DNA from: Escherichia coli | GTDB taxonomy: Bacteria; Pseudomonadota; Gammaproteobacteria; Enterobacterales; Enterobacteriaceae | Length of the DNA stretch: 64,000 nucleotides | Direction: 5' to 3' (one strand) | NCBI RefSeq assembly: GCF_024223415.1 | Contig: NZ_CP100500.1 | Part shown: positions 22,240 through 23,361 of the stretch, one piece after another | Layout of the letters: each line of letters begins with the position of its first letter | Numbering within the stretch: position 1 is the stretch's first letter | The notes under the pieces: generated by a model | The model's input: the letters and a program-made list of their open reading frames with translations, nothing else | The model's database searches: none | Told to the model about the DNA's origin: nothing | Program-made: the position numbers and the translations under genes

Positions 22240-22616
22240 ATTTTTCCCTAAATAGTCAGTATGTTGAAACTTTTTATTGTGAGATTTGTTGCAAAAACCA
22301 TCTGACCATAACGCCAGCTGCAGGGGAAAGGAAGGATTATCTGCGGTTTTTGTGATGAAAAGCAGGATGATTATGTTTAACCCAGTAAATACGTTCCTGT
22401 CTTTTTTTGTATAAAAATGTTTATTACTCGATGTAAGGATACATTAATTTTACGTTTATTATGATGAATCCTCTGCAAATGAGCGAAATTTGATAGAACA
22501 TTTATCTGCTGTACGATTTAATGAACTTAATGATACAGCATTACAAAAACAATCGAAGTTTATAAAATAACATTTTTATAAAGATGATTTCTGATTGACC
22601 AGAACCCTACCATACA

Positions 22617-23141
22617 ATGGTGACTAATTTTATTACTCTCGAAGGAGATGATGACATGAATATATCATATGTGAATAGCAACAAAACGACATCTTTACCT
22701 GTAGAGCTAGATACACTAAATAACAAAGATATCTCTTATGCCAAAGATTTCTTTTTATATATAGAAATACAGTTAAAAATTGCAAAAGATTTTTGTAGAC
22801 CTGGAGAAGAAGTATCAAGTTCTATTGCAAGTACAGTTTTTCACGCTTTTATTGATTTAGTTAACAAAATCAGGGGAAAGAAAGATTGTATGTATATTTG
22901 TACGCTTTGCTGTTTTGCCGAGGAGGTTAAAGGTGATTATTCTCATTACAGGACCTTTTCATTTGATATCGGTAATCAATATAAGGTTAAACTTACACAA
23001 AGCGGAAAAGATGAGTTCTCTTTAACTTTAGAATTTAACGATACTATAATTGAATCTCAGAAAGTCACAGGCAATAAGGCAAAGCATATTCTTAAGGATA
23101 TAGCAGAATACTATCGTAACAAACCCGGCACTTATTATTAA
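22617..23141 (+). CDS. Hypothetical protein, A+T-rich (yjbS-region ORF); probable start at ATG 22656
   Basis: 174-codon ORF in the A+T-rich aphA-tyrB interval; GGAG RBS precedes the in-frame ATG at 22656; Cys cluster CMYICTLCC; no recognisable domain. Confidence 0.45.
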   Translation: MVTNFITLEGDDDMNISYVNSNKTTSLPVELDTLNNKDISYAKDFFLYIEIQLKIAKDFCRPGEEVSSSIASTVFHAFIDLVNKIRGKKDCMYICTLCCFAEEVKGDYSHYRTFSFDIGNQYKVKLTQSGKDEFSLTLEFNDTIIESQKVTGNKAKHILKDIAEYYRNKPGTYY

Positions 23142-23361
23142 GTTTAATAATGATTAGAAATGCAGAAATTATTACCCCACACAAAAAACAGGGTAAGGAA
23201 TTCCAGATAATTAGGATAATCTTAACAATAAAATAACTAACAACGTTTATTATCTCTCACGTAGAACGATGGTATCAAAAAAATCATCTATAAAGAAAGT
23301 GTGAAAGCGACGACAGTTTAATTTCACTGCAGGCTGGGTAATTCCAGCCTGCTTTACTGCA

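Follow-up and report, generated by a model that had tools for sequence, protein, structure and literature searches.

The intact form of yjbS in the aphA-tyrB spacer of Escherichia coli, a probable orphan gene in decay

The yjbS locus

The DNA examined here (the window) is a stretch of 64,000 nucleotides of an Escherichia coli chromosome (assembly GCF_024223415.1, contig NZ_CP100500.1). The element in question is yjbS, which lies between two housekeeping genes, aphA (21526-22239, minus strand) on the left and tyrB (23362-24555, minus strand) on the right. The spacer between them occupies 22240-23361 and is 1122 bp long. Its G+C fraction, averaged over 200 nt, is 0.25-0.40 across 22200-23399, compared with about 0.44-0.59 in the flanking genes. 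On the plus strand it carries an open reading frame (ORF) at 22617-23141, which amounts to 174 codons, or 161 codons when counted from the ATG at 22656; the 161-codon frame is 31% G+C. The spacer was shuffled 2000 times with its dinucleotides preserved; the longest ATG-initiated ORF then had a mean of 52 codons (sd 16, maximum 135), and no shuffle reached 161 codons. The ORF is therefore longer than chance allows.

Two in-frame start codons are available. The upstream one, ATG 22617, has no Shine-Dalgarno sequence before it and overlaps a -10-like TACAAT. The 13 codons that it would add (22617..22655, plus strand) differ between alleles mostly non-synonymously (L/R/P, E/D, T/I, D/Y), and they probably form 5' untranslated region (UTR) rather than coding sequence. 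The downstream one, ATG 22656, stands 9 nt from a Shine-Dalgarno GGAG (22643..22646, plus strand) that does not vary among six aligned alleles. For these reasons, and because the Prokaryotic Genome Annotation Pipeline (PGAP) begins at the equivalent ATG, 22656 is the favoured start. From there the coding sequence for 161 amino acids plus stop (22656..23141, plus strand) is open in the window. A first-pass annotation of the sequence had described a very A+T-rich spacer of about 1.1 kb, with an ORF at 22617..23141 that probably starts at 22656 behind a GGAG ribosome-binding site, and all of this holds. Further upstream, a 16-bp insertion (22560..22575, plus strand), found only in the window and SCU-316 among the six aligned alleles, creates a -10-like hexamer TAAAAT.

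Within the coding sequence, four sites recur in the comparison of alleles. An 18-bp unit encoding SYAKDF (residues 27-32; 22734..22751, plus strand) is present once in the window, K-12 and O157, twice in M11, E24377A and others, and three times in G3X16-2. The codon for C47 (TGT; 22794..22796, plus strand) is the one from which K-12 has lost the G. A cysteine cluster, C78-x3-C82-x2-C85-C86 (CMYICTLCC, residues 78-86), is read directly from the sequence at 22887..22913 (plus strand). Lastly, where other intact alleles read GCGGAAAAAAAGAG, with a slippage-prone run of seven A (A7), the window has the interrupted sequence GGAAAAGATGAG, encoding GKDE (23004..23015, plus strand).

YjbS of K-12 and other disrupted alleles

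In K-12, a protein of 67 amino acids (b4621, WP_001321562.1, 'protein YjbS') is annotated at the equivalent place, in agreement with the first-pass annotation, which mentioned only a short yjbS there. It shares the locus, the strand and the start codon of the 161-codon ORF. The K-12 spacer is 94% identical to that of the window over its entire length, and residues 1-46 of the K-12 protein are nearly identical to the window protein, with divergence only past a frameshift. This first lesion is a deletion of the G of codon 47 (TGT, window 22795) in the context agattttt[G]tagacctg. The frame is lost there, 21 out-of-frame residues follow and a stop is reached, whereas the window encodes the full 161 amino acids. 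A second lesion, a further 1-nt loss, lies in a downstream A run. By alignment, K-12 YjbS is the N-terminal stump of a longer gene; because it shares its ATG with the window ORF and the K-12 frame is lost at codon 47, the window holds the intact form of the gene degraded in K-12.

The earlier suggestion that the window may preserve the intact form of a gene degraded elsewhere is supported not only by the K-12 spacer but also by O157 and other lesions. In the O157 allele, a 10-bp deletion covers the place of the A7 run and leaves a product of 119 amino acids. One A has been lost from the A7 run in six alleles (K-12, L008, L010, L012, L014 and L025), and L008 and L012 have lost a C in addition to the change from A7 to A6. 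One disrupted strain combines three copies of the SYAKDF repeat with a +1 insertion. In SCU-308 (L015, NZ_CP053281.1), T5/A5 runs have gained one nucleotide at seven places within 500 bp, a pattern that suggests uncorrected errors of long-read assembly.

The stump also affects the annotation of other genomes. Where the ORF is intact, PGAP records a pseudogene of about 205 nt, 'hypothetical protein, frameshifted', and sometimes adds a separate protein of 83 amino acids that starts at M79, splitting the intact gene into two features. Intact genes of 161 or 167 codons are mislabelled in this way in many RefSeq genomes, and the likely reason is that the pipeline takes the out-of-frame K-12 YjbS as its reference protein. 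The stump thus appears to propagate wrong 'frameshifted' labels in RefSeq. That the reference YjbS of K-12 is a frameshift stump rather than a small protein is mainly of value for curation.

Distribution among Escherichia coli genomes

The spacer was searched for in 5426 complete E. coli genomes, a biased sample. It matches 4378 of the 5426, mostly at 90-95% identity, with eight records at 99% or above. The cassette, as the A+T-rich inserted part of the spacer is called below, is absent or incomplete in 1099 of the 5426 genomes, including 1048 without any match. A systematic sample was drawn by taking 40 rows at even steps down the ranking of 4379 matching records, and 39 of these carry the cassette. 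Twenty of the 39 were read directly, and 19 were assigned by exact agreement in span, identity, bit score and annotation. Sixteen of the 39 are intact and 23 disrupted, which puts the intact share at about 41% (rough 95% interval 26-58%). The first-pass annotation had held that an ORF broken or absent in most genomes, with no evidence of expression, would count against a gene; this is borne out in part, as roughly two thirds of the complete genomes have a broken frame or no cassette.

A further 23 alleles at the aphA-tyrB site were read. Fourteen other loci have intact alleles of 161 or 167 amino acids, the latter with a second copy of the SYAKDF unit: those of SCU-316, M11, E24377A and an O104:H21 strain, and ten more. 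Twelve distinct alleles, with protein sequences that differ by up to 14%, keep the ORF open, and in-frame changes in the number of 18-bp copies leave it open too. The intact alleles occur in known phylogroup B1 strains and in other lineages. The exact protein of the window is found on 609 public contigs, always under the name 'hypothetical protein'. P0007, also an intact allele, is in 406 collection blocks. At all loci the flanks and the orientation are the same (between aphA and tyrB, divergent from aphA), and each genome has a single copy of the cassette.

Selection on the reading frame

Pairs of intact alleles were compared by the Nei-Gojobori method for synonymous (dS) and non-synonymous (dN) divergence. 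dS is 0.06-0.18 and dN 0.013-0.078, with pairwise dN/dS of 0.15-0.5 for most pairs. Fisher tests give P of 0.0003-0.02 for several pairs, which are not independent of one another. For the same genome pairs, aphA and tyrB have a dS of 0.006-0.09 and a dN of at most 0.009; the ORF therefore evolves several-fold faster than its neighbours. When the 12 distinct intact alleles are pooled, 24 synonymous and 45 non-synonymous changes are counted, where the synonymous fraction expected under neutrality is 0.21-0.28, depending on transition bias. An honest reading of these values is that the YjbS protein appears to be under weak purifying selection. Such constraint suffices for yjbS to count as a protein-coding gene, and its weakness would account for how often the gene is lost.

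The predicted protein and its orphan status

The 161-residue protein has no evident signal peptide or membrane segment in its sequence, and the product is predicted to be soluble. AlphaFold2, run on a shallow alignment of the family, gives a model with a mean predicted local distance difference test score (pLDDT) of 59 and a predicted template modelling score (pTM) of 0.60. The N-terminus (1-33) is predicted to be disordered and is rich in Ser, Thr and Asn. Helices are placed at 27-46, 55-71 and 75-84, a low-confidence loop at 86-96 just past the cysteine cluster, and a C-terminal helix at 139-154. The best-predicted part is a four-stranded meander at 100-138 (pLDDT 75-87). Eight intact alleles all have C47, C85 and C86. 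At C78, F is found in many alleles of K-12/B1 type, and at C82 in one (P0005), so a strict metal site is unlikely. The CMYICTLCC cluster noted in the first pass is therefore present, but it is not a strict motif.

The same annotation had seen no recognisable domain, and the searches agree. Nothing significant was found for the protein in Pfam, NCBIfam, PHROGs or PADLOC, with no family matched; as regards anti-phage defence in particular, no PADLOC model matched. A sequence search of the PDB returned only noise, headed by the chaperone-binding region of SipA (E 0.8), and no confident fold match was obtained. Comparison by hhalign of the family profile with the five other A+T-rich ORFs of the window, and with small alignments of EspX4 and EspX5, was negative. 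A search of 5.8 billion proteins gave 65 matches, and every named one was from Escherichia. A profile of eight intact alleles, run against 1.84 billion cluster representatives, found 27 proteins, all of 142 amino acids or fewer and matching the profile in part, which we take to be fragments of yjbS itself. On these searches the YjbS protein appears to be an orphan with no detectable relative outside E. coli.

When 100,044 species of GTDB were scanned, with one genome each, a single locus turned up, on a Flavobacterium contig. This locus (L021, NZ_JAUFQN010000013.1, 'Flavobacterium paronense CECT 8460') was rejected as contamination, the 9.5-kb contig being 99.6% identical to E. coli uvrA-tyrB. 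The F. paronense CECT 8460 assembly is consequently a species representative in GTDB that carries a contaminant contig of E. coli. Clusters of AphA at 89-93% identity were considered as possible other Escherichia species and proved to be error-rich E. coli assemblies. An 898-bp contig in the ENA encodes a predicted protein of 106 amino acids (P0065) in which about the first 39 residues of upstream-extended YjbS are followed by the haemolysin E C-terminus (Pfam PF06109), a fusion that is probably an assembly chimera.

Origin of the cassette

In three loci of Salmonella type, one of them labelled Salmonella enterica, the tyrB-aphA spacer is only 186 nt long. It is homologous only to window 22240 to about 22361, after which a different terminator hairpin follows. 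The remaining DNA of the window spacer, about 985 bp at 22372-23360 (boundaries within 10 nt), is for this reason regarded as an inserted cassette, which carries the ORF and its flanks and has a G+C fraction of 0.30-0.31 over 500 nt. The left part, 22240..22371 (minus strand), is ancestral aphA upstream sequence; it aligns with Salmonella to about 22361 and with the B2 strain EcN to about 22371, is almost invariant among the aligned E. coli alleles, and presumably holds the aphA promoter and 5' UTR. The view of the spacer as foreign has to be qualified accordingly, since its first 135 nt or so are common to Salmonella.

Between the convergent ORF and tyrB lies a G+C-rich hairpin, GCAGGCTGG-6-CCAGCCTGC (23329..23352), which is kept among the aligned E. 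coli alleles. It probably serves as the terminator of tyrB, and possibly acts in both directions. Since it is not followed by a T run, a simple terminator scan did not report it. It is unlike the hairpins at the equivalent place in Salmonella and EcN, and so came in with the cassette.

EcN, the one genome without the cassette that was examined, matches the window up to about 22371 and then again only from the tyrB stop codon. Between these points sits the 13.7-kb kgu island (kguS/kguR, 2-oxoglutarate dehydrogenase, succinyl-CoA ligase), which in EcN replaces the yjbS cassette rather than standing beside it. This alpha-ketoglutarate island of uropathogenic E. coli and the B2 group (c5032-c5041) has been described in CFT073 as inserted between tyrB and aphA (PMC3694859). 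It shares with the cassette the insertion site and, within about 10 nt, the left boundary. In contrast to the cassette, it has about 50% G+C, ten metabolic and regulatory genes and a demonstrated role in fitness (PMC3694859). A single site is thus found in three states, with the ancestral spacer bare, with the orphan cassette of 1 kb or with the metabolic island of 13.7 kb.

No repeats flank the cassette, and a search for an insertion scar gave only short A+T-rich chance matches. The cassette has no mobility gene, no PHROG match, no phage copy and no true plasmid copy; the 'plasmid' matches were rejected as chromosome-sized, mislabelled or contaminant records. Among the plasmid-filed records with the yjbS locus (H47-H50), several are 1-5 Mb in size, which suggests mislabelled chromosomes. 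A 17-kb plasmid record named 'Klebsiella oxytoca' (H53, NZ_CP069917.1) carries a K-12-type yjbS, which suggests contamination or misassembly. Copies of the insertion sequences (IS) IS150, ISVsa5, IS1A and IS5 interrupt the uvrA-tyrB stretch in several E. coli strains (H41-H45), and the A+T-rich cassette seems to be an IS target. In the Salmonella-type loci (L027-L029, positions 5619-6399), two overlapping unannotated ORFs of 112 and 147-151 amino acids, with no Pfam match, lie between yjbR and uvrA, where E. coli has no such genes.

Probable silencing by H-NS

Among the 78 'promoter islands' published by Panyukov and Ozoline (2013, PMC3661553) is the K-12 interval between tyrB and yjbS. In that work it is bound by H-NS in chromatin immunoprecipitation-microarray (ChIP-chip) data for MG1655 and W3110, is classed as foreign by two predictors and is transcriptionally silent (PMC3661553). 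Like the promoter islands, the window interval has a high A+T content and a foreign composition and is flanked by housekeeping genes. It differs from them in the density of promoter-like sites, of which six were found against 4.9 +/- 2.0 in shuffles, using a simple sigma-70 consensus scan and not PlatProm. A search for the high-affinity H-NS motif TCGATAAATT found one site with one mismatch. The 318-bp published island presumably falls between the stop codons of tyrB and of K-12 yjbS, and so would occupy the out-of-frame remainder of the full-length ORF. The island is thus probably located inside what was formerly coding sequence.

The cassette has the marks of xenogeneic DNA, being low in G+C and absent from Salmonella and EcN, with no copy found in other species. 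From its composition and the K-12 data, it is most likely that in the window also it is coated and silenced by H-NS. The density of Tn5 insertions in K-12 yjbS is low (PMC5821084), and during adaptation to macrophages IS1 inserted into K-12 yjbS twice (PMC4999529). Because IS1 insertions arise in culture and EcN does without the cassette, yjbS cannot be essential. Shielding by H-NS is taken to account for the sparse Tn5 insertions, on general grounds and not on any statement in the report of them.

Interpretation of the intact allele

The intact yjbS allele is probably a real gene, of xenogeneic origin and without relatives, that is silenced, weakly constrained and in decay. A single-gene, A+T-rich cassette of about 1 kb entered a short ancestral aphA-tyrB spacer in an E. 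coli lineage. H-NS would coat this cassette, and the protein would be made only once silencing is relieved. Under weak selection the gene is being lost repeatedly, through homopolymer frameshifts, small deletions and replacement of the whole cassette, and the 67-residue YjbS of K-12 is one product of such repeated loss. The kind is familiar, that of a horizontally acquired, A+T-rich and probably H-NS-silenced gene that some lineages keep intact while it decays in others, and no new mechanism is involved. As for its role, the protein would, at a best guess, be dispensable and expressed conditionally, an accessory or interaction protein and not an enzyme.

Several points weigh against this interpretation. 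No expression or proteomic evidence was found for the intact form, and binding by H-NS is known only from the K-12 region, which is 94% identical to that of the window. Some intact allele pairs have a dN/dS of 0.8-0.9, the pooled test (P 0.004-0.15) is only borderline once transition bias is allowed for, and variable sites are distributed over the three codon positions as 18/21/29, with no significant skew. Some of the alleles called disrupted may reflect homopolymer errors in long-read assemblies, clearly so for SCU-308 and possibly for L009. The predicted structure is mediocre, coming as it does from a shallow alignment, and for other Escherichia species absence is drawn from a pattern-based scan that took one genome from each species.

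Some of these points suit the less likely but plausible proposal that yjbS is a dead relic in every lineage and is intact in the window only because it has not yet been hit, a proposal that differs from the preferred one only in whether selection remains. About 59% of the sampled cassette-bearing genomes are disrupted, secondary lesions pile up (two each in K-12, L008 and L012), and the dS and dN of the ORF are two- to several-fold above those of aphA and tyrB; the high dN/dS of some pairs, the silent, H-NS-bound state of the K-12 region (PMC3661553) and the tolerated insertion of IS1 (PMC4999529) point the same way. Against it, most intact pairs have a dN/dS of 0.15-0.4 with significant Fisher tests, the frame is open in 12 distinct alleles, in B1 strains and other lineages alike, two intact proteins are widespread (the 609 contigs and 406 blocks given above), and the window allele is without the fragile A7 run. 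This last feature also speaks against a phase-variable contingency locus, in which slippage at A7 would act as a switch modulated by the number of 18-bp repeats. Although the loss of one A recurs in the six alleles read and the repeat is found in one, two or three copies, most of the off alleles carry further, irreversible lesions (codon 47 in K-12, the C in L008 and L012, the 10 bp in O157), A7 is short for an efficient switch, and the A6 state may be one inherited event, so that phase variation is very improbable. Scarcely credible is a chance ORF in an interval that serves only as non-coding DNA, be it a promoter island, an H-NS nucleation site or a small RNA such as STnc150. The cataloguing of the K-12 region as a promoter island (PMC3661553) would fit, as would the weak similarity of 23131-23359 to STnc150 in Rfam (18 bits, E 0.13-0.35), but the shuffles largely refute it, the Shine-Dalgarno sequence is conserved, dN/dS is below 1 and promoter-like sites are not enriched. 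The match itself was rejected as compositional, scoring 18.2 bits against a gathering score of 60 for RF01402, a Salmonella small RNA at icdA/STM1239 that is not syntenic.

Other proposals concern what the protein does. It might be a substrate of a type III secretion system, left over from the repertoire of E. coli type III secretion system 2 (ETT2) or of the locus of enterocyte effacement and akin in kind to other A+T-rich islets of the region, two of which encode proteins of effector families (EspX5/YjcF, 7730-9022; SopA family, 39422-41002). The predicted disorder of the first 33 residues and their Ser, Thr and Asn content would suit secretion, as would the very weak match to the chaperone-binding region of SipA, but that match is at noise level and the composition is unspecific. 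The best non-self Foldseek matches are uncharacterized proteins of Shigella, E. coli, Salmonella and O157 (E of about 1e-3, TM score of about 0.47), with A0A2X2HGS0, A0AAN3TTQ2, A0A5W0JRV5, Q8XC25 and A0A376VBI9 as the leads, but they were obtained with a low-confidence query model. EcN has no cassette, and B2 strains are also known to be without ETT2. There is no similarity to EspX4 or EspX5 (hhalign probability <1%) or to any effector family of NCBIfam or Pfam, and on balance this origin is improbable. Equally doubtful is a broader version, in which the 161-residue protein would found a fast-evolving family restricted to enterobacteria, with a secreted or host-interaction function, for example as an orphan ETT2 substrate whose decay tracks the loss of ETT2; the weak Foldseek matches would in that case be genuine. 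A small metal- or redox-active protein acting through the cysteine cluster would explain five Cys in 161 residues and the invariance of C47, C85 and C86. It is likewise a poor candidate, as C78 and C82 are replaceable by F, no zinc-ribbon, ferredoxin or other Cys-motif family matches, and the model puts the cluster at a helix end and in a low-confidence loop. A silenced and weakly constrained orphan gene in decay thus remains the probable nature of the intact yjbS allele.

Other A+T-rich islets in the window

The EspX- and SopA-family genes of the window, of type III effector type, resemble the yjbS cassette in being A+T-rich single-gene islets. They differ in that their products share no sequence or profile similarity with the 161-residue protein, which has no pentapeptide repeats. 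The first of these genes (7730-9022, plus strand; G+C 0.33) encodes a pentapeptide-repeat protein of 430 amino acids under the NCBI name 'T3SS effector pentapeptide repeat protein EspX5' (YjcF), in an islet that looks silenced. The second (39422-41002, minus strand; G+C 0.32) encodes an intact SopA-family pentapeptide protein of 526 amino acids (NCBIfam NF007264, 1149 bits). This looks like K-12 yjbI at full length; of the truncated, K-12-type form of 442 amino acids, very large clusters exist.

Beside ssb lies an orphan ORF of 147-158 amino acids (16313-16789, plus strand; G+C 0.34), named 'hypothetical protein' in E. coli only and without an NCBIfam match, which looks like a second cassette of the yjbS kind. 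A further A+T-rich interval (30362-31383, minus strand) carries YjbL (94 amino acids, DUF2713 in some records) and an ORF of 85 amino acids; the zur/yjbL region of K-12 is also a published promoter island.

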